Source of the DNA: Faecalibaculum rodentium
GTDB taxonomy: Bacteria > Bacillota_I > Bacilli_A > Erysipelotrichales > Erysipelotrichaceae
Direction of reading: 5' to 3'
Length of the DNA: 32,000 nt
Assembly (NCBI RefSeq): GCF_001564455.1
Contig: NZ_CP011391.1
Location: forward strand, 1,410,001 to 1,442,000
The stretch's first letter is position 1. Each line of letters begins with the position of its first letter. The translations under genes and the position numbers were made by a program. Positions 1 through 7,371 of the stretch are shown here, in pieces. Under the pieces are notes generated by a model. It was given only the letters and a program-made list of their open reading frames with translations. It was not told the DNA's origin and did not search any database.

Positions 1-414
1 AAGGCCGGGACTGATTTCAGGATGTGTGCCGTCTGCCGCTGTCTGATAGCCCGATTCTCCTGAACCCGGCTGGCTGTCGTGTTCCCCGACACCCTGGGTT
101 TCCGCTGTCTCTTCGGCTGCTGCCACCGGTTCCGGCAGTTCCCGTTCCCCGCCTGAACCGATGCCTGCATCCTGATCCATATCTGTTTCGGTCTCCGGTC
201 CTGCACCTGGATTCAGGTCTTCTTTCTGCGAAGATCCATCCGGTTTTGAATTTTCCGGGATTCTGCTGTCACTGGCCTCCATCTGTCGCAAAAGTCCTTC
301 CGGCGTCCTGATCCAGACCCGGCGGGATGGCTGTGTCAGGATCCCGGGATCCTTCATGGTGCAGATCTCGCAGATCGTGCCGGCATCTACCGGCGGCTGT
401 ATATGTTCAGTCAT
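1..414 (-). CDS. hypothetical acidic protein, N-terminal part only (gene runs off the left edge); CxxC near N-terminus
   Basis: Absent from the ORF track because no stop lies in the window. Hand translation of the reverse strand from ATG 414..412 gives 138 stop-free codons down to position 1: MTEHIQPPVDAGTICEICTMKDPGILTQPSRRVWIRTPEGLLRQMEASDS..., followed by a D/E/G/P-rich tail. The ATG lies inside the end of the upstream gene (ATGACTGA, 8-nt overlap). Confidence 0.45.
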   Translation of the reverse strand, partial: MTEHIQPPVDAGTICEICTMKDPGILTQPSRRVWIRTPEGLLRQMEASDSRIPENSKPDGSSQKEDLNPGAGPETETDMDQDAGIGSGGERELPEPVAAAEETAETQGVGEHDSQPGSGESGYQTAADGTHPEISPGL

Positions 415-1393
415 TCACTGTCTCCTTCCATTCCATCAGCTGTGACACATCAGACCCGAACCGGTCTTTCCACTCCGCCGGCAGGGTCATGTCACAGCCT
501 TCTGTCTTCATTCGCAGAGCGTATGCCGCAACACACAGCGCATCCTGCTCTGTCCGGACTTTCCGGCACACCTGTTCCAGCACCCCTGCCTCCAGCGGTT
601 CGTCCAGGTCCTGCAGAACCTGCAGTCGTTCACTTAGCGGACGGCTGTCATCCAGGAGCACCTGACGGACGAGATCCGTTTCGTGCATCTGAGACCCGGG
701 CAGCTGCAGAACCGGAACACAAAGTCCGGCCGCGAAGACAGACACTGTGATCATCCAGATCAGAACACTGCCCGGGATCTTTCCAGAATGCAGGGGATCC
801 CTCCGTCGCCCTGGGTCCAGTTGCAGGCACCGGCGTCGCTGCAGGGGATACAGATGCCAGCGTCTGGCCAGCATCCCCCAGGCCCAGGCATCCGCTGCCG
901 TGGTTTTCGGACAGTCACCGGCCAGTTCCGGTGCCATGCTGTCCAGTGTGGCGAAAAAGCACTGACGGCTGCCGGCCTCCAGCACGCCGTCATAATCAAT
1001 GAGCACCACCCTGTCATCGCACAGAAACAGGTGGTCTTCCTTCAGGTCGAGATAGAGGTAGCCCAGCTGATGGATCCTTTCCAGAATGCGGGCCGCTTCC
1101 TGTAGGACCCGCCGTTTCTGCGCCCTGCTCAGCCCGCCGGCGGGTGTTCCCTGGATGTATTCCTCCACCAGGACACGCTCCGTCTCCGTTTCCCGGCACT
1201 CATACAGGCACGGTGCATTCCTGCCCTTGAGCTTCAGTAGCAGATCCGCCTCCCTGGCAGACTGACGGCAGGCCAGGATATCGCTTTTTCGGGCCCGCCG
1301 CAGGATGACAAGCCTGCCGGTCTCTTCATCCCGTGCAAGTTCCGTGCAGCACAGATTGCATCCAAGGACTTTCAGACGCCTGTAGCGGTTCAC
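407..1393 (-). CDS. membrane-anchored Ser/Thr-kinase-like protein with degenerate catalytic motifs (possible pseudokinase)
   Basis: ORF track, 328 aa, GTG start overlapping the FHA gene stop (GTGA). Kinase-like landmarks read by eye: LVILRR (VAIK-like, Lys->Arg), YLYLDLKEDHLF (HRDLKxxN-like), LIDYDG (DFG-like), SMAPE (APE). One hydrophobic helix, VLIWMITVSVFAAGLCVPVLQL, followed by about 95 aa. Confidence 0.7.
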   Translation of the reverse strand: MNRYRRLKVLGCNLCCTELARDEETGRLVILRRARKSDILACRQSAREADLLLKLKGRNAPCLYECRETETERVLVEEYIQGTPAGGLSRAQKRRVLQEAARILERIHQLGYLYLDLKEDHLFLCDDRVVLIDYDGVLEAGSRQCFFATLDSMAPELAGDCPKTTAADAWAWGMLARRWHLYPLQRRRCLQLDPGRRRDPLHSGKIPGSVLIWMITVSVFAAGLCVPVLQLPGSQMHETDLVRQVLLDDSRPLSERLQVLQDLDEPLEAGVLEQVCRKVRTEQDALCVAAYALRMKTEGCDMTLPAEWKDRFGSDVSQLMEWKETVND

Positions 1394-2415
1394 TGTATGA
1401 ACTGCAGGATATGCGCCCCCAGCCGGAGTTCCATGCCATTGCGGAGCCGCATTTTTCGCCTCACCTGTTTCTCCCCGAGCCAGGTCCCGTTTGCGGATCT
1501 CAGGTCCTGGATATAGAACCGTCCCTGATCCGCTGTGATCCTGGCATGCAGCGCAGATACGCTGTCATCCAGGACCCGGATGTCGGCCTGCATCCCCCGG
1601 CCCACGGTCATGGTTTCAAACGGCAGTTCATACCGGCTGTCGCCATCCACCAGACAGGCGGCAGCTTCCGGCACCGGCGCCAGGATCTGGGTGGCCTGTG
1701 TGAATGCCGGATTTCCGCCGCTTTCTGCCCACCTGTCACCCGGGTCCGGCTTCTCAGATCCAGGGATCGGCAGTGGCGGCATCAGTGCATCGTATTCGAT
1801 CACCGGCAGGATCACCTCTTCACGTGTCCGGAAGGGTTCTCTCGGCTTCGGGGGCAGAAAGGGAAACCGGCGGGGATGGTAGGTCCGTTCCAGTTCCCGC
1901 AGTCCCTGGATCACTGTCGGCAAAGAGAACTGGTCACTGCTCTGTGCCATCTGGAGCCAGCCGGGAATTTCGTAATCCGTCGATGTCCGAAAGGCCGAGC
2001 GGACAGCTTCCACGAAGTCCCGCATCTCTTCCCGCTGCAGCAGCCAGGCATCGGTTTTCAGTGGCAGGACAGCAAAGCGGAACTGGTCTCCGTACCTGGA
2101 ACAGAACACCGTACGGATATCCAGGTGCAGCGGCTTGCCCCTGGCCGTTCGAATCGAGGATTCAAAGAGTTCCTCCAGGAATCCGTAACCCTCCCGCTGC
2201 ACAAAGGTGTATTCCTGCAGAAAGGCATGGATGTCCATGAGTCCCGAAATGTCATACTCCAGAACCACCGGATTCCTGCAGACCACCCGGCACTTCAGAC
2301 ACCCCGGATCGAACGCCGCCTGCTCCAGCAGTGTTTCATCAAACATTTCCTGTTCATTGACCTGGATCCGCAGCACCGAAGCGCTGCGTCCTGTCACCGT
2401 TACATGGTCTTTCAT
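1390..2415 (-). CDS. FHA domain-containing protein (unrecognised N-terminal domain, Pro-rich linker, C-terminal FHA)
   Basis: The C-terminus ...YELPFETMTVGRGMQADIRVLDDSVSALHARITADQGRFYIQDLRSANGTWLGEKQVRRKMRLRNGMELRLG is a typical FHA signature (G-R...S..H...N.GT..NG). The track ORF (1390..2961) is over-extended. I place the start at ATG 2415 (MKDHVTVTG...), preceded by GGAGG (aaaggaggtccgATG). The region upstream of that is antisense to a hydrophobic plus-strand ORF. Confidence 0.8.
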   Translation of the reverse strand: MKDHVTVTGRSASVLRIQVNEQEMFDETLLEQAAFDPGCLKCRVVCRNPVVLEYDISGLMDIHAFLQEYTFVQREGYGFLEELFESSIRTARGKPLHLDIRTVFCSRYGDQFRFAVLPLKTDAWLLQREEMRDFVEAVRSAFRTSTDYEIPGWLQMAQSSDQFSLPTVIQGLRELERTYHPRRFPFLPPKPREPFRTREEVILPVIEYDALMPPLPIPGSEKPDPGDRWAESGGNPAFTQATQILAPVPEAAACLVDGDSRYELPFETMTVGRGMQADIRVLDDSVSALHARITADQGRFYIQDLRSANGTWLGEKQVRRKMRLRNGMELRLGAHILQFIQ

Positions 2416-2505
2416 CGGACCTCCTTTCCATGGGGCGTACTTGTATATACGCGGATTGGACTGATTTTTGATGAAATCCGACGAAAATCTGTATACTTTT
2501 AAGAT

Positions 2506-2976
2506 GTGTGTAAGATTTTTGTTCTGACTTTGTTGTGGCTGCCGGTTTTTTTCACAAACCCTGTCTCCCAAAACATCACGGCTCTCCAGCAGCACTGCCT
2601 GTGGCTGTACATTCTCTGGGGTCTGCTGGTTCTCACACTGCTTGTCCGCAGGTACAGACCCGGTCCCTGGCTGGTATGTCTGGCGGCGGGATTCGTGATT
2701 CCCTGGAATGCGGCCGGTCCGGGATGGCTCAATGACCTGCATATCTGGCTCCAGATTGCCGCCATCATCCTGCTGTCTGTCGAACAGCTTCGGCTTGTGT
2801 TGTATGTTCACAACAAAAAAGCCAGGACCTGGTTCCTGGTCCTGGGCATCAGTTTTGTCATCATGGCTGCCTGTGGGCATGTCAGCGGACTGGCCGAAAT
2901 GGTCTGGGCTTCCGGGATCCTGCTCCTGGTTCCAGCCCGACCCGATTTGAATTCTCCTCATGATTCCAGTTACTGA
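2506..2976 (+). CDS. hypothetical small integral membrane protein (about 4 TM helices)
   Basis: ORF track, 156 aa with a GTG start. It has several long hydrophobic stretches (IFVLTLLWLPVFF, LWLYILWGLLVLTLLV, WLVCLAAGFVIPW, IAAIILLSV, WFLVLGISFVIMAA, ASGILLLV). It is divergent from the FHA operon and followed by a weak hairpin plus T-run. No clear SD, so the start is uncertain. Confidence 0.45.
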   Translation: MCKIFVLTLLWLPVFFTNPVSQNITALQQHCLWLYILWGLLVLTLLVRRYRPGPWLVCLAAGFVIPWNAAGPGWLNDLHIWLQIAAIILLSVEQLRLVLYVHNKKARTWFLVLGISFVIMAACGHVSGLAEMVWASGILLLVPARPDLNSPHDSSY

Positions 2977-3154: not shown

Positions 3155-3889
3155 ATGAAAGGAAAGACAGACCGGAAAACAAAGACAGATCCGCAATCTG
3201 CCAGTCTGAAAAAACCGGAATATTCATCCCTGGAAGAAACGCTGGAACCTGCACTGGATGAGCTGTGTCTGATGGATGACGTCTACCGGAAAGCAGCCGC
3301 GATCCGGCTGCCGGAGGACAAAAAGAAAGCATTCAGCATACTTCTGCACGAAGCCATATTTGGCCAGACCCTGAAACCCGACAAGATCACGGTGTCATTT
3401 CAGACACCCATCCCAAACCATGCCGATCTGATGACGGGCAAAAACTCCATCCTGGATATGCTCATACAGGTGGAAGGAGAAAGTGTCAGTGTTTATGACT
3501 TTATCCAGTACGACATTGAACCCGGACGTGTACTCCGTTATTCTGAAATCGCATCACAGTTTGCGGTGCGAGCGGGCAAACCCTGCAATGACAGGTTGCA
3601 GACCAACTGTGTGTTCATCACAAATGCAAACCACTTCAAAGGAACCCGACTTAAGATTTTTCCGCACGATGAACCGATCCGGATCATGGAAACGGTGACA
3701 GGCGATAAAACGACATGCTTTCGCTTTGATATTCACCAGGTATTTGTAAACGCCGGATTTCGGGATGACTCATTTCCGGGTCATCTCATGCAGGATCTCA
3801 ACGAACCGGATCCCGAAAACATCACCATACCTCTGCTGCAGGATATGGTGAAGACCATAAAACGAAAGAAAGGAGCAGAAGCTATATGA
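3155..3889 (+). CDS. Rpn/PD-(D/E)XK-nuclease-family putative transposase, N-terminal (nuclease-like) portion
   Basis: ORF track, 244 aa, SD AGGAG 7 nt upstream. The layout matches the family I know from gut Firmicutes: LMDDVYRK..., ...NSILDMLIQVEGESVSVYDFIQYD..., ...VFITNANHF..., ...GHLMQDLNEPDPENI.... It ends in ...KKGAEAI, exactly where homologues continue into the helical C-terminal region. Confidence 0.65.
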   Translation: MKGKTDRKTKTDPQSASLKKPEYSSLEETLEPALDELCLMDDVYRKAAAIRLPEDKKKAFSILLHEAIFGQTLKPDKITVSFQTPIPNHADLMTGKNSILDMLIQVEGESVSVYDFIQYDIEPGRVLRYSEIASQFAVRAGKPCNDRLQTNCVFITNANHFKGTRLKIFPHDEPIRIMETVTGDKTTCFRFDIHQVFVNAGFRDDSFPGHLMQDLNEPDPENITIPLLQDMVKTIKRKKGAEAI

Positions 3890-4143
3890 GCAGAGTACTG
3901 CAGGAAATGCTGGAAACCCGGGAACAGTCTGCCTTTTCTGCCGGGATACAGAAAGGAATACAGAAAGGCATGCAGACCGGAATATATGCCGAACGAAACC
4001 GGATCGTCACCAGAATGCTGAAAAAGGGAGGCAGCAGTCTGTGCAACATCGCTGAACTTGCCTCCATTCCCCTCAGCGTAGTCATACTGATCAAAGACTG
4101 CCTGGAACAGGCACAGGACGCCGGAGAAACCGTTCTGAACTGA
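3886..4143 (+). CDS. C-terminal portion of the same Rpn-like family (QKGIQKG repeat plus helix-turn-helix-like tail), encoded as a separate overlapping ORF
   Basis: 85 aa: MSRVLQEMLETREQSAFSAGIQKGIQKGMQTGIYAERNRIVTRMLKKGGSSLCNIAELASIPLSVV.... The E/QKGxxKG repeats followed by an 'ML..G.S...IAE...' segment are typical of the C-terminus of single-chain Rpn-like proteins. ATG 3886 overlaps the upstream TGA (ATATGA). GGAG lies at 3872..3875, 10 nt upstream. Confidence 0.6.
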   Translation: MSRVLQEMLETREQSAFSAGIQKGIQKGMQTGIYAERNRIVTRMLKKGGSSLCNIAELASIPLSVVILIKDCLEQAQDAGETVLN

Positions 4144-4168
4144 ATATCGAAAGCCATCAGATACAAAA

Positions 4169-4201
4169 CCCACCCGATATCAGATTGACTGGGTGGTTTT
4201 T
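4169..4201 (+). terminator. intrinsic terminator candidate
   Basis: cCCACCC (4169..4175), a 15-nt loop, GGGTGG (4191..4196), then TTTTT. Confidence 0.55.
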
Positions 4202-4326
4202 CAGTTCATTTAAACAAACAGACATCCCCTGCTCTGTGGCAGTCATGAAAAGAGGAGAACAGCATCCAGCCATGTTCTACTTCACTTTTCTGTCCTGTTC
4301 GATCTGGCGACACTATATTTCCATGA

Positions 4327-5622
4327 TTATTTCACCATCGAATCCTGTGTACGCCAGTCCGGACTCAGCAGCCGCCGCACAATGCCGACATGACCAGCCA
4401 TTTCCCGCAGGATAGCTGCCCGTACCAGGCCGGCCACAGCGATTGCCACGCCAACAACGGTCATCACACTGCACAGCTGCAGCAGGACCGGCAGTCCCAG
4501 CGTATCCTGCAGGATCCCCCCAAAGAGGTTGCCTGCCATACCACCCAGTCCTGTTGTGGCAATGGCGATCCAGCTCTGTCCCGTCAGTCTGTCCCCGGGC
4601 TCCAGGACCGATCCCGCATATTCGGTGATCACCACCGTAAACAGCCCGAAACTGATTCCCTGGCACATTAGTCCGGTCAGCAGCATGGCGAAGGATGTAG
4701 CCTGGGCCACCAGCAGATTCCGGCATCCGTAGCAAAGCGCTGCAGCCAGAAGCAGCGGCAGGGATCCCATTCGCTGCCTGATCCGCGGGGTAAGCACCAT
4801 CACCGGCAGTTCGCTGGCGGCCATCAGAAACAGGCTGATGCCCAGCAGTGACGGGTCCAGGTGCATGTCCTCCAGAATATTCACCAGATAGGTCTGCATG
4901 CAGCTGGCCACCATGTAACACAGGCCAAACCCCGCCAGCAGCACAAAGAACAGCGGGTATTTCCCGAACAGGCAGCCCTGTCTTTTCCCAGTGACCTGTG
5001 CAGAGAGTTCCGAGTCCGCTTCAGCTGCCTGACGACAATCGTCACCGGCTGCATACACCTGCGGCATCCACAGCAGGACCACACTCAGGCAGGCAGTTCC
5101 CGCTGCATAAATCCAGCCCAGGCAGCCGGGCTCCAGCCACGAAGAAAGCTGTGCAAGGATCATAGCCGCAGCCGCAAAGGAGATGGATCCCACTCCTCTT
5201 GCCGGCCCGAACTTCAGCCGCAGTCCCTGTGCAATGCAGTTCATGGAAATCTGCGAGAGAAACGGATTCATGGCCAGAAACAGGCAGAATGTCATCCCGT
5301 ATCCCGCCATGATCAGCCAGTCCGGCAGAGGCAGAAGAGCCAGCAGTGCATAGAGCAGACCGCTGAGTCCCAGATACATCATCATATATACCTGCAGCGA
5401 GATCCCGTTCCACCTGGCAGCCACTTTTGACAGCAGTGGTGACACAAAGTACGAAGCCAGAGAGGCAAGTCCGGCCGTCAGACCGATTTCCGTGTTGCCC
5501 AGTCCCCTGCTCTGCAGGAACACCGCTGTGAATCCCGTCAGGGCACACCCTGCGCCTCAGTACAGTCCCTGTGCCAGGCTGTACTGCACCTGCAGCCTGG
5601 AATCTGTTTTCTCCTGTCTCAT
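4327..5622 (-). pseudogene. MFS transporter interrupted by an in-frame TGA at codon 22
   Basis: The track ORF 4327..5523 (398 aa, GVGSISFAAAAMIL..., 10 or more hydrophobic helices) lacks the first TM helix and starts at GTG. In the same frame upstream: SD (ggatGGAGaaacg), ATG 5622, then MRQEKTDSRLQVQYSLAQGLY-TGA(5559..5557)-GAGCALTGFTAVFLQSRGLGNTEIG. The stop falls inside what reads as TM1. Confidence 0.75.
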
Positions 5623-5928: not shown

Positions 5929-7371
5929 TTATTTGTCTTCGTCCGGATCGTTCTCTCCAGAGCTGCCTTCCGGTTTCGCCGGCAGATCTGCAGGGCCTGT
6001 TTCAGAAGGAGTGCGGGTCCCGTCACCCGCATCCTCAGAAGATGCCTCCGGCTCCTGAACATCCACCGTCACGGTTTCCGACTCTGTTACAGCCGGAAGG
6101 GCCGGCAGAGAAGCCTGCTGCTCCTGTGCCTGATCCATCGCATCCAGTTCCTCGATCTTCTCCAGATAGCCTCTGGCATTGTCCACGAAATACAGCTTGC
6201 CGCCGGTCTGGATCACCTGCCGGAAATACATGGCGGCCAGACCGTAGTCCTGCTGCACAAAGGAAATCAGGCCGATGTAGTACGCCGCATCCGCTTTCTG
6301 GAACGGGAACACCGCTGTCTTCAGACTCTGCAGGAAATACCGCTTGCATTCCGAAAAGTCGCCGTTCATCAGATCCAGACGGTTCTTGATGGAATTCAGT
6401 TCCTCGCTCCGGATCATCACACCCGTGTTGCCGAAATTCAGCCGCACCTTCGTTGCCTCTTCATAGCTTCGCTCCAGGCCCGCCTGGTCCTTCATCAGGT
6501 AATAGATGTAGGACATCAAAGACCAGTATGTGAGCACACTCGCTGCATCCTTGCGCGGGAATGTGATCAGCACATCCTGGGCCAGCTGCGGATCATTCAG
6601 GTAAATCAGGCACTGGGCCAGAAGGGCCTGGTTGGTCAGGCGCACCTTCCCCCGCCGCGTGGAGTAGTAGATGATGGCCGAAATGCATGCTTCCGGATCG
6701 CACTGTTCATAGAGCAGCTTTGTGATCGGAATCATGCAGCTGGCGCGATATCGCGCGATGTAGTTGAAAATGATCATGTACGCCATGATGGCCAGCATCA
6801 TGATCAGGATGTTGTTCACGAAAAACAGCACACACATCACCGCCACAATACCCAACGCATAAATGGAAGCGGCGCGGTCTGCATTTTTCCGGCACTCTTC
6901 CGCCATGGCTTTGTATTGCGGATCCAGTTTGTGATGCAGCTCATAGATGCGCACCAGCTCCGCATCTCCGGTGATCTTTGCCCGGCGGAATGCGGAATCC
7001 CGTCCCGTTTTCAGCTGTATGAGACCCACGATACTCAGGATCACCATGGGGATCACCAGCGCTGTCCCGATCAGGATCAGGTACGAGGGCATCAGGAACA
7101 GAAACAGATAGATGAATATCGGAGAGACCTGGAACTGTGTCATGAGCAGCTGTCCGATCAGGATGATATTGGCAATGCCTGCGACCACCAGCCCCCCCGA
7201 TACACACATTGCGATCTTGTTTCCCACCGCATACGCCGCCAGTTCCGGCGGAAGAAACGACAGAGACGCATTGGACGGATCGGCATACAGCAGGAATCCG
7301 AAGGCAACGGCACCACACACAAAGGCAAGCGCCAGTGTAATCAGCTGCGTCTTGCAGCGATATTTCCACAT
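5929..7371 (-). CDS. hypothetical polytopic membrane protein with a C-terminal TPR-like helical region and acidic tail
   Basis: The track ORF 5929..7536 is over-extended into cysE. I start it at ATG 7371 (MWKYRCKTQLITLALAFVCGAVAFGF...), 7 nt after the cysE stop. The first ~250 aa carry about 6 hydrophobic helices. These are followed by helical-repeat-looking sequence (ALLAQCLIYLNDPQLAQDVL, YWSLMSYIYYLMKDQAGLERSYEEA, AAYYIGLISFVQQDYGLAAMYFRQVI) and a D/E/P/S tail. Confidence 0.7.
   Translation of the reverse strand: MWKYRCKTQLITLALAFVCGAVAFGFLLYADPSNASLSFLPPELAAYAVGNKIAMCVSGGLVVAGIANIILIGQLLMTQFQVSPIFIYLFLFLMPSYLILIGTALVIPMVILSIVGLIQLKTGRDSAFRRAKITGDAELVRIYELHHKLDPQYKAMAEECRKNADRAASIYALGIVAVMCVLFFVNNILIMMLAIMAYMIIFNYIARYRASCMIPITKLLYEQCDPEACISAIIYYSTRRGKVRLTNQALLAQCLIYLNDPQLAQDVLITFPRKDAASVLTYWSLMSYIYYLMKDQAGLERSYEEATKVRLNFGNTGVMIRSEELNSIKNRLDLMNGDFSECKRYFLQSLKTAVFPFQKADAAYYIGLISFVQQDYGLAAMYFRQVIQTGGKLYFVDNARGYLEKIEELDAMDQAQEQQASLPALPAVTESETVTVDVQEPEASSEDAGDGTRTPSETGPADLPAKPEGSSGENDPDEDK

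Follow-up and report, generated by a model that had tools for sequence, protein, structure and literature searches.

A compact type VII secretion operon with a predicted pseudokinase in Faecalibaculum rodentium

What is built by three overlapping genes that pair a phosphothreonine-binding FHA domain with a membrane-anchored kinase-like protein and an acidic disordered chain? The genes in question (genes 1 to 3) occupy positions 1 to 2,415 of a 32,000-nucleotide (nt) stretch of Faecalibaculum rodentium DNA (assembly GCF_001564455.1, contig NZ_CP011391.1, positions 1,410,001 to 1,442,000 of the forward strand), which we call the window. A first-pass annotation, made from the sequence of the window, had described them as a translationally coupled operon and an uncharacterised signalling or assembly module, and had likened gene 2 to EssB/YukC of type VIIb secretion. 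We find that this trio opens, on the promoter-proximal side, an operon of ten genes for a type VII secretion system (T7SS) of F. rodentium, and that the cluster is an undescribed and stripped-down relative of the subtype T7SSe. The trio's suggested role as an assembly or signalling module is supported. It was uncharacterised in part: proteins of the TsxJ and TsxD types, to which genes 1 and 2 belong, were catalogued bioinformatically by Garrett et al. 2024 (PMC11217815), but the variant itself is undescribed.

A ten-gene type VII secretion operon

All three genes are read from the minus strand. Gene 1 (positions 1390..2415; ATG 2415..2413, TGA 1392..1390) is a tsxJ-like gene for a protein of 341 residues, recognised by its Pfam FHA match and its AlphaFold2 (AF2) model. 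Gene 2 (407..1393; GTG start 1393..1391, TGA 409..407) is tsxD-like, encodes 328 residues and matches Pfam Pkinase, and gene 3 (1..414; ATG 414..412) shows the first 138 of its 480 codons before the rest runs off the window. When re-checked, the coordinates bore out the overlaps reported earlier: the TGA of gene 1 lies on the GTG of gene 2, the stop and the start sharing the tetranucleotide GTGA on the minus strand, and the TGA of gene 2 lies inside gene 3. Shine-Dalgarno sequences precede both gene 1 (AAAGGAGG, 2420..2427 on the minus strand, with GGAGG at 2424..2420, five bases before the ATG) and the ATG of gene 3 (GGAAGGAGA). Gene 1 is the start of the operon and is separated by an intergenic region of ~90 nt from a divergent gene; a sigma-70-like match near the operon start is weak and lies on the opposite strand only.

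To follow the operon past base 1 we turned to other assemblies. An identical kinase-like protein is present in 486 assembly-index blocks, and 22 contigs carrying it were read. Because just 2 nt differ in the 2,415 that locus L001 shares with window positions 1-2415, L001 extends the window directly. There, gene 3 is complete (L001:10980-12422, 480 residues) and overlaps by 8 nt the gene for a TsxC-like membrane ATPase of 1005 residues (L001:12415-15432), which in turn is overlapped by the gene for a small protein of 67 residues in the TsxB slot. Two adjacent WXG100 proteins follow (97 and 94 residues; Pfam 2e-8 and 2e-10), then a small protein of 58 residues, a 268-residue protein (L001:16402-17208) and a DUF4176 protein (92 residues; Pfam 7e-25); the 67-, 58- and 268-residue proteins have no family match. 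The gene order is thus tsxJ-like, tsxD-like, gene 3, tsxC-like, 67-residue protein, two WXG100, 58-residue protein, 268-residue protein, DUF4176, and all ten reading frames are intact. With both an FtsK/SpoIIIE ATPase and WXG100 proteins, the cluster is a type VII secretion system, and its ten genes are one translationally coupled operon whose overlapping frames run on beyond the window edge. The earlier statement that the trio has no partner enzymes is true inside the window, but the operon continues past the left edge with the ATPase and the two WXG100 proteins; the partners are missing from the window because the operon runs off it. The companion statement that no other T7SS gene is present has to be withdrawn, as an FHA-FtsK/SpoIIIE ATPase, two WXG100 proteins and DUF4176 stand directly beyond base 1.

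The ATPase carries two hydrophobic helices within residues 198-250 and matches FHA (2.7e-11), Pfam FtsK_SpoIIIE (6.5e-19) and the NCBIfam models EssC (2.3e-59) and EccCa (1.6e-46), as well as YukB and EccC5 among PDB sequences. Its FHA domain is single and keeps the phosphothreonine (pThr) residues GR, SxxH and NG. D1 (residues 461-682) is the sole recognisable NTPase domain, with an intact Walker A motif GTTGSGKS. We considered whether the C-terminal 305 residues might form another recognisable NTPase domain and rejected this, as a search of them against PDB sequences gave zero matches. In relatives the ATPase is 1141-1184 residues long and there, too, has a single FtsK Pfam match; at 1005 residues the F. 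rodentium protein is too short to accommodate four NTPase domains.

Of the smaller products, the 67-residue protein has no YukD match, and an 87-residue protein in the same slot of locus L011 matches YukD weakly (E=0.0037). The 268-residue protein is helical towards its N-terminus, whereas its C-terminal part is beta and rich in Gly and Ser. Every relative conserves it in the same slot (270-291 residues, 27-60% identity), with a helical protein of 58-72 residues before it and DUF4176 after it, and we regard it as a candidate for a conserved substrate, a toxin or a core part of the system.

The trio does have the same neighbours in related genomes. The order J, D, gene 3 slot, C, small protein, WXG100, WXG100, small protein and a protein of ~270-290 residues is kept in four of the five lineages sampled: F. 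rodentium itself (L001-L006), a second Faecalibaculum species (L008, and L010 from a metagenome-assembled genome named uncultured Faecalibaculum sp.) at 59-80% amino-acid identity, with lower values for gene 3 and the 67-residue protein, L007 at ~30% identity and a low-GC group, L011-L013, at ~20% identity. The fifth, L015, has a DUF6382+FHA protein beside two PP2C, two WXG100 and DUF4176, and so offers a link to PP2C but no kinase. A profile scan of one genome per species with a four-sequence alignment returned the single locus L010, at 69% identity, and left F. rodentium itself unmatched though the search patterns equal the window; its presence may differ among F. rodentium strains, or the stretch may be masked in the scan. 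The first-pass annotation had allowed that a known module might explain the locus, and this is largely how it turned out, the module being the T7SS component set of Garrett et al. 2024.

Products of the first three genes

The domain layout proposed earlier for the three products (an FHA domain; a kinase-like domain with one transmembrane (TM) helix and a 95-residue segment; an acidic chain) was confirmed by Pfam and hydrophobicity. The N-terminal region of the gene 1 product had been called unassignable, and profile libraries alone would leave it so: the FHA domain is found at residues 270-333 (Pfam, E=1.1e-16), but in residues 1-250 Pfam and NCBIfam find nothing, and DUF6382 is not matched even at E<=1. 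Nor is there a hydrophobic segment in the protein. A family search gives a different answer. Using HMMER, we ran a four-sequence profile of the N-domain against 1.84 billion representatives and obtained 102 cluster representatives at E<=1e-3; the size of the family is taken from this exhaustive search, since word-index homologue searches gave 6-9 proteins each. Among the full-length relatives, 46 of 73 carry Pfam DUF6382 (best 2.3e-12) and 69 of 73 carry FHA, and one relative that is 30% identical to gene 1 (P0006) matches DUF6382 weakly (E=0.063). Because 46 of the 73 family members match DUF6382, we read the N-domain as a divergent DUF6382 and gene 1 as a divergent member of the TsxJ family, which in T7SSe, T7SSf and T7SSj is described as an N-terminal DUF6382 joined to a C-terminal FHA domain (PMC11217815).

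A predicted structure suggests what this domain may look like. The AF2 model has a pLDDT of ~85 over residues 1-180 (positions 1876..2415, minus strand), predicts disorder over 181-250 and places the FHA fold at 254-340. The structure and profile searches that had been suggested for residues 1-230 gave a match to TraF-N by Foldseek and a weak one to EssB by hhalign. The former, PDB entry 8cba from the type IV secretion system (T4SS) of pIP501, ranks first among the structures other than FHA domains that match the gene 1 model (199 columns, TM score 0.59, E=1.2e-5, sequence identity 10%). TraF-N has a pseudokinase fold and has been reported as a structural homologue of EssB/YukC (PMC13037476). 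The hhalign alignment of the N-domain family with EssB/YukC is weak and collinear, placing N-domain columns 50-115 on EssB 56-120 (single-comparison E=0.002, probability 14%). The Foldseek table of Garrett et al. includes protein kinases among the matches of TsfJ (PMC11217815), in agreement with a pseudokinase fold for DUF6382. With moderate confidence, then, DUF6382 can be modelled as an EssB/TraF-like pseudokinase-fold domain.

The FHA domain of gene 1 (residues 254-340; 1396..1656, minus strand) appears competent to bind pThr, with G272-R273, S287-x-x-H290 and N309-G intact. Its best Foldseek matches are the FHA domains of GarA and OdhI, and it is also similar to FhaB/FipA. In the 73-member alignment the pocket residues G272, R273, S287, H290, N309 and T311 are nearly invariant, and outside the pocket only L62, P118, G152 and T242 are. 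The last of these begins a short motif, T242-Q-I-L245 (1681..1692, minus strand), that sits in the disordered linker (pLDDT <50) ~10 residues before the first FHA strand. Its column holds Thr in 69/73 sequences, with Leu or Ile at +3 in 67/73 and usually acidic residues before it. The classical ligand of an FHA domain is pT-x-x-(I/L), and T-x-x-L is likely a phospho-acceptor at which an FHA domain docks. This docking would probably take place in trans: with only ~10 residues between the Thr motif and the FHA fold, self-binding in the manner of GarA is the less likely option. The same T-x-x-L/I can be seen in the published TsxJ alignment (GTTVL twice in TseJ, ETELL in TsfJ, STQLI in TsjJ), the figure of which marks GR, SxxH and NG only (PMC11217815).

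Gene 2 has the topology of a TsxD protein: the kinase domain is cytoplasmic, a single TM helix follows, and the outer C-terminus is helical. Pfam Pkinase covers residues 19-175 (E=5e-13); the single hydrophobic helix spans 206-233 (nt 695-778) and is followed by the 95-residue extracytoplasmic segment, in which the model has helices at 238-325. Searches lead to true kinases: RSK, DAPK, MARK and PknG among PDB sequences, and MELK, MARK and PknB by Foldseek (E ~1e-8). No YukC/EssB model was matched in Pfam or NCBIfam. The EssB/YukC analogy drawn at first was right about the T7SS link and the topology, but gene 2 is a Hanks-type kinase homologue, and the EssB-like fold is predicted on the N-domain of gene 1.

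The conserved active site expected of a TsxD is not preserved in gene 2. The protein retains the αC Glu (E48), D116-L-K118, D133 at the DFG position (which reads DYD), A-P155-E156, D168 and the subdomain XI Arg, and it has lost the GxGxxG loop, the VAIK β3 Lys (R32 in the HMMER alignment) and the catalytic-loop Asn (H121). The active site is complete in the kinases of L011 and L013, where GKGGMSEV, AGK, FRDLKPEN and DFG are all present. From there the relatives grade down: the L007 kinase has no G-loop and keeps the Lys and DLKADN, and another intermediate, P0011, keeps the β3 Lys, which is Arg in F. rodentium and the relatives closest to it. Loss of one of three key residues is the usual criterion for a pseudokinase, and because gene 2 has lost one, we predict that it is a pseudokinase descended from an active TsxD. 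In EssB all three catalytic motifs are degraded (PMC12599244); gene 2 keeps the HRD-type and the DFG-type Asp.

Gene 3 had been described as an acidic disordered chain leaving the window, and the complete L001 copy fits this description over its whole 480 residues (D+E 17%, isoelectric point 4.4). The middle ~300 residues are acidic, Pro/Ser/Gly-rich and disordered, and the C-terminus is formed by a β-rich segment of ~90 residues, the short hydrophobic stretch WFSLWPILLAPVLWL and then KRRHHG. Neither the 138 residues visible in the window nor the full protein match anything in Pfam or NCBIfam, and no signal peptide or Ig repeats were found. The CEIC said to begin the protein is present, but at residues 15-18 (C15-E-I-C18), and it is replaced by REEQ in the orthologue of the sister Faecalibaculum species. 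We rejected a zinc-ribbon, TseK-like identity for gene 3: its single CxxC is unconserved, and a zinc ribbon needs two CxxC pairs.

The gene evolves fast. Between the two Faecalibaculum species it is 29% identical, versus 47-82% for the other nine proteins, and only its C-terminal 120 residues align well, so that the conserved parts are the C-terminal β-domain, the hydrophobic anchor and the basic tail. In L007 the slot holds an 896-residue protein that is likewise disordered. In L011 and L013 it holds proteins of ~900 residues that carry a Sec signal peptide and numerous Ig-like repeats and have a TM helix at the C-terminus together with a basic tail; this is the architecture published for TsxI (PMC11217815). 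A demonstrable homology of gene 3 to TsxI was rejected on insignificant sequence scores, and we treat the two as equivalent in position and architecture only. By the positive-inside rule the basic tail should be cytoplasmic, in which case export of the acidic region would have to do without a signal peptide.

A possible docking platform and its rivals

How does this cluster compare with systems already described? T7SSc-j were defined from gene neighbourhoods by Garrett, Higginson & Palmer 2024 (PMC11217815). With T7SSe, T7SSd and T7SSj the F. rodentium cluster has in common a cytoplasmic DUF6382+FHA TsxJ, a single-pass membrane TsxD with a Ser/Thr-kinase domain and a helical outer domain, an FHA-bearing FtsK/SpoIIIE TsxC with GR/SxxH/NG, a non-identical WXG100 pair A1/A2, a small protein in the TsxB slot and a Bacillota host. 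It differs in what has been pared away. T7SSe has the PP2C TseF, whereas the F. rodentium cluster has no PP2C; the TsxI slot holds a 480-residue acidic disordered protein instead of an Ig-repeat protein with a signal peptide; TsxD is without the Gly-loop, the β3 Lys and the catalytic Asn; and no single-TM open reading frames (ORFs) of the TseH or zinc-ribbon-like TseK kind were called in the cluster. Neither Faecalibaculum nor Erysipelotrichaceae appears in the text and supplements of Garrett et al. 2024 (PMC11217815), two of the supplements being covered in part, and we found no literature linking Faecalibaculum to type VII secretion.

More distant machines offer further likenesses. In the T7SSb of S. 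aureus and B. subtilis a kinase-fold membrane scaffold, EssB/YukC, contacts the FHA-bearing N-terminus of the ATPase EssC, and gene 2 has a similar topology. However, the EssB-like fold of T7SSb is on a membrane protein, whereas here it is predicted on a soluble FHA protein, and the EssC FHA domains of T7SSb lack the pThr residues (0% GR and SxxH), which are intact here; neither EsaA nor EssA was found in the 20-kb loci. TraF-N (8cba) resembles the gene 1 N-domain as a pseudokinase fold that serves as the interaction hub of a Gram-positive secretion machine, although TraF, a conjugation-system membrane protein, differs from gene 1 in having no FHA domain. Elsewhere, Thr phosphorylation controls assembly or activity through a kinase in the membrane, an adaptor with an FHA domain and a pThr motif, as in PpkA/PppA/Fha1 of the type VI secretion system (T6SS), Agrobacterium TssL-Fha and the mycobacterial switches GarA/OdhI and MviN-FhaA, and the conserved Thr upstream of the TsxJ FHA domain recalls the ETTS motif of GarA. 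But the T6SS and GarA-type switches belong to different machines, and the F. rodentium cluster has no phosphatase and a kinase partner that is probably inactive.

Taking these together, we think the locus is probably best explained as the front end of a T7SS operon that encodes an FHA-pThr-gated docking platform, in which TsxD is mainly a scaffold. The three proteins would form a cytoplasmic and membrane docking platform for the ATPase, with TsxD dimers in the membrane and soluble TsxJ docking its N-terminus. TsxJ would act as a soluble adaptor that combines a pseudokinase-fold domain, the T-x-x-L phospho-acceptor and a pThr-competent FHA domain, and TsxD in F. rodentium would probably be mainly a scaffold, as EssB is in T7SSb. 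FHA-pThr contacts could tie the complex together and gate its assembly; candidate contacts are those of the TsxJ FHA domain with a phosphorylated partner and of the TsxC FHA domain with the phospho-T-x-x-L of TsxJ, the phosphate coming from residual TsxD activity or from another kinase. Gene 3 may be an envelope-side component, reduced to one β-domain and an anchor behind a fast-evolving acidic region. By analogy, precedents for such an arrangement may be seen in EssB-EssC(FHA) of T7SSb, Fha/PpkA of T6SS and the MviN-pseudokinase/FhaA pair of mycobacteria.

Several observations weigh against this picture. No PP2C was found within 10 kb on each side in L001-L006, nor among the ten larger ORFs of the window. 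TsxC is published with four NTPase domains in all subtypes (PMC11217815), and here one is recognisable in 1005 residues. The pseudokinase fold of the gene 1 N-domain comes from one Foldseek match, made with a four-sequence AF2 model, and the weak hhalign alignment, while the HMM of the N-domain gave zero matches to PDB sequences at E<=10. Gene 2 keeps D116, K118, D133 and APE, so residual or atypical activity is possible. Comparison of gene 3 with TsxI-like proteins gave a BLASTP E of 0.017 and an insignificant hhalign result, and the proposed picture does not account for its topology without a signal peptide. Finally, we know of no experimental study of T7SSc-j, and every step of the mechanism is something we infer.

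It is possible, though we doubt it, that TsxD is still a working atypical kinase that phosphorylates T242 of TsxJ or itself and so switches secretion on, an unlinked phosphatase reversing the effect. The catalytic-loop Asp and Lys, the DFG-type Asp, the APE and the αC Glu are retained, relatives have canonical kinases, and the preservation of the FHA pThr residues and of T-x-x-L in F. rodentium argues that phosphorylation still matters; yet a housekeeping kinase could supply the phosphate. Against activity stand the β3 Lys-to-Arg change, which is the classical substitution for a dead kinase, the missing Gly-rich loop, the replacement of the Mg-binding Asn by His and a C-lobe that is shorter than that of PknB (in an alignment with a PknB reference sequence). 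A compensating Lys is not conserved either, K8 being Arg in the sister species. The reductions relative to L011 and L013, which affect kinase, ATPase and envelope protein at once, might also point to a decaying, non-functional remnant of a T7SSe-like system, as might the 29% identity of gene 3 between Faecalibaculum species and the species-representative scan that gave the locus in an uncultured Faecalibaculum sp. only. We consider decay unlikely: none of the ten translationally coupled frames is broken, the two species share the gene order and have 47-82% identity in the other components, the identical kinase-like protein recurs in 486 assembly-index blocks, and the D1 Walker A motif GTTGSGKS is intact.

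Two readings that would sever or redraw the T7SSe connection are very improbable. One is that the genes work by themselves in Ser/Thr signalling, for example as a division or envelope module like FhaA/FhaB-PknB, and merely lie beside a T7SS. The FHA domain is indeed closest to FhaB/FipA, OdhI and GarA, and the kinase-like partner is membrane-bound, but the overlapping frames reach the ATPase gene, the J-D-x-C-WXG100 order is conserved down to ~20% identity, the DUF6382+FHA architecture is known from T7SS clusters only, and in L015 a DUF6382+FHA protein again stands beside WXG100 and DUF4176. The other, which takes the locus for a canonical T7SSb with gene 2 as its EssB/YukC orthologue, would account for the succession of a pseudokinase-like domain, a single TM helix and an extracytoplasmic domain of helices. 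We regard it as refuted as a matter of family membership: YukC/EssB is unmatched and the best matches are true kinases, gene 2 keeps two of three key residues, EsaA and EssA are absent from the cluster, and the FHA domain of the ATPase is single with intact pThr motifs.

A bolder version of the docking-platform reading is tentative, and we would sooner bet against it. Faecalibaculum, L007 and L011-L013 might represent a minimal T7SS subtype beyond T7SSa-j, whose ATPase has one active and one degenerate NTPase domain. A membrane kinase would here be turning into a pseudokinase scaffold, in an independent replay of one possible origin of EssB, the EssB-like DUF6382 would be recruited to the FHA domain of the ATPase via a universally conserved phospho-T-x-x-L, and the T7SS would itself deliver the gene 3 product to the envelope.

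Implications and surroundings of the operon

Having placed the trio in a T7SS, one can ask why it matters. F. rodentium is a widely studied mouse gut commensal, and a T7SS would be a candidate weapon for bacterial competition or a host-interaction factor. With ten genes, a kinase that is probably inactive and no phosphatase, the compact version described here is minimal by nature, and could show the structural roles of the FHA, kinase-fold and DUF6382 parts. The T-x-x-L motif and the predicted EssB/TraF-like fold of DUF6382 offer testable links between the phospho-regulated subtypes and the well-studied EssB-EssC interaction. The component set was already catalogued in 2024; what remains to this locus are the reduced architecture, the predicted kinase-to-pseudokinase transition, the DUF6382 fold and the Thr motif.

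The genes that surround the operon in the window can be described briefly. Directly upstream and divergent from it is a gene for a 156-residue membrane protein with multiple helices (2506-2976, plus strand). It is 62% identical at the same position in the sister species, but its conservation is confined to Faecalibaculum, and we rejected it as a conserved component of the system. Between the operon start and a gene for a 480-residue protein, positions 3155-5523 encode proteins of 244 and 85 residues, both without a family match, and an MFS transporter. These genes are absent at the equivalent place in the sister species (L008), and the segment looks like a local insertion beside the T7SS. The 480-residue protein itself (5932-7371, minus strand) has several hydrophobic helices, a region that looks TPR-like and an acidic Pro/Glu-rich tail, without a Pfam match, and its gene adjoins a hexapeptide-repeat gene in the sister species too. 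About 6 kb from the T7SS operon, positions 8356-11000 (minus strand; L001:1-3038) encode four proteins (signal peptidase S26, DUF7601, sortase and one of 197 residues) that seem to make up a sortase-dependent cluster for a surface protein or pilus. Elsewhere the window holds housekeeping genes, including GH1, a DnaJ-domain protein, Sir2, ClpB, RsmF and others.

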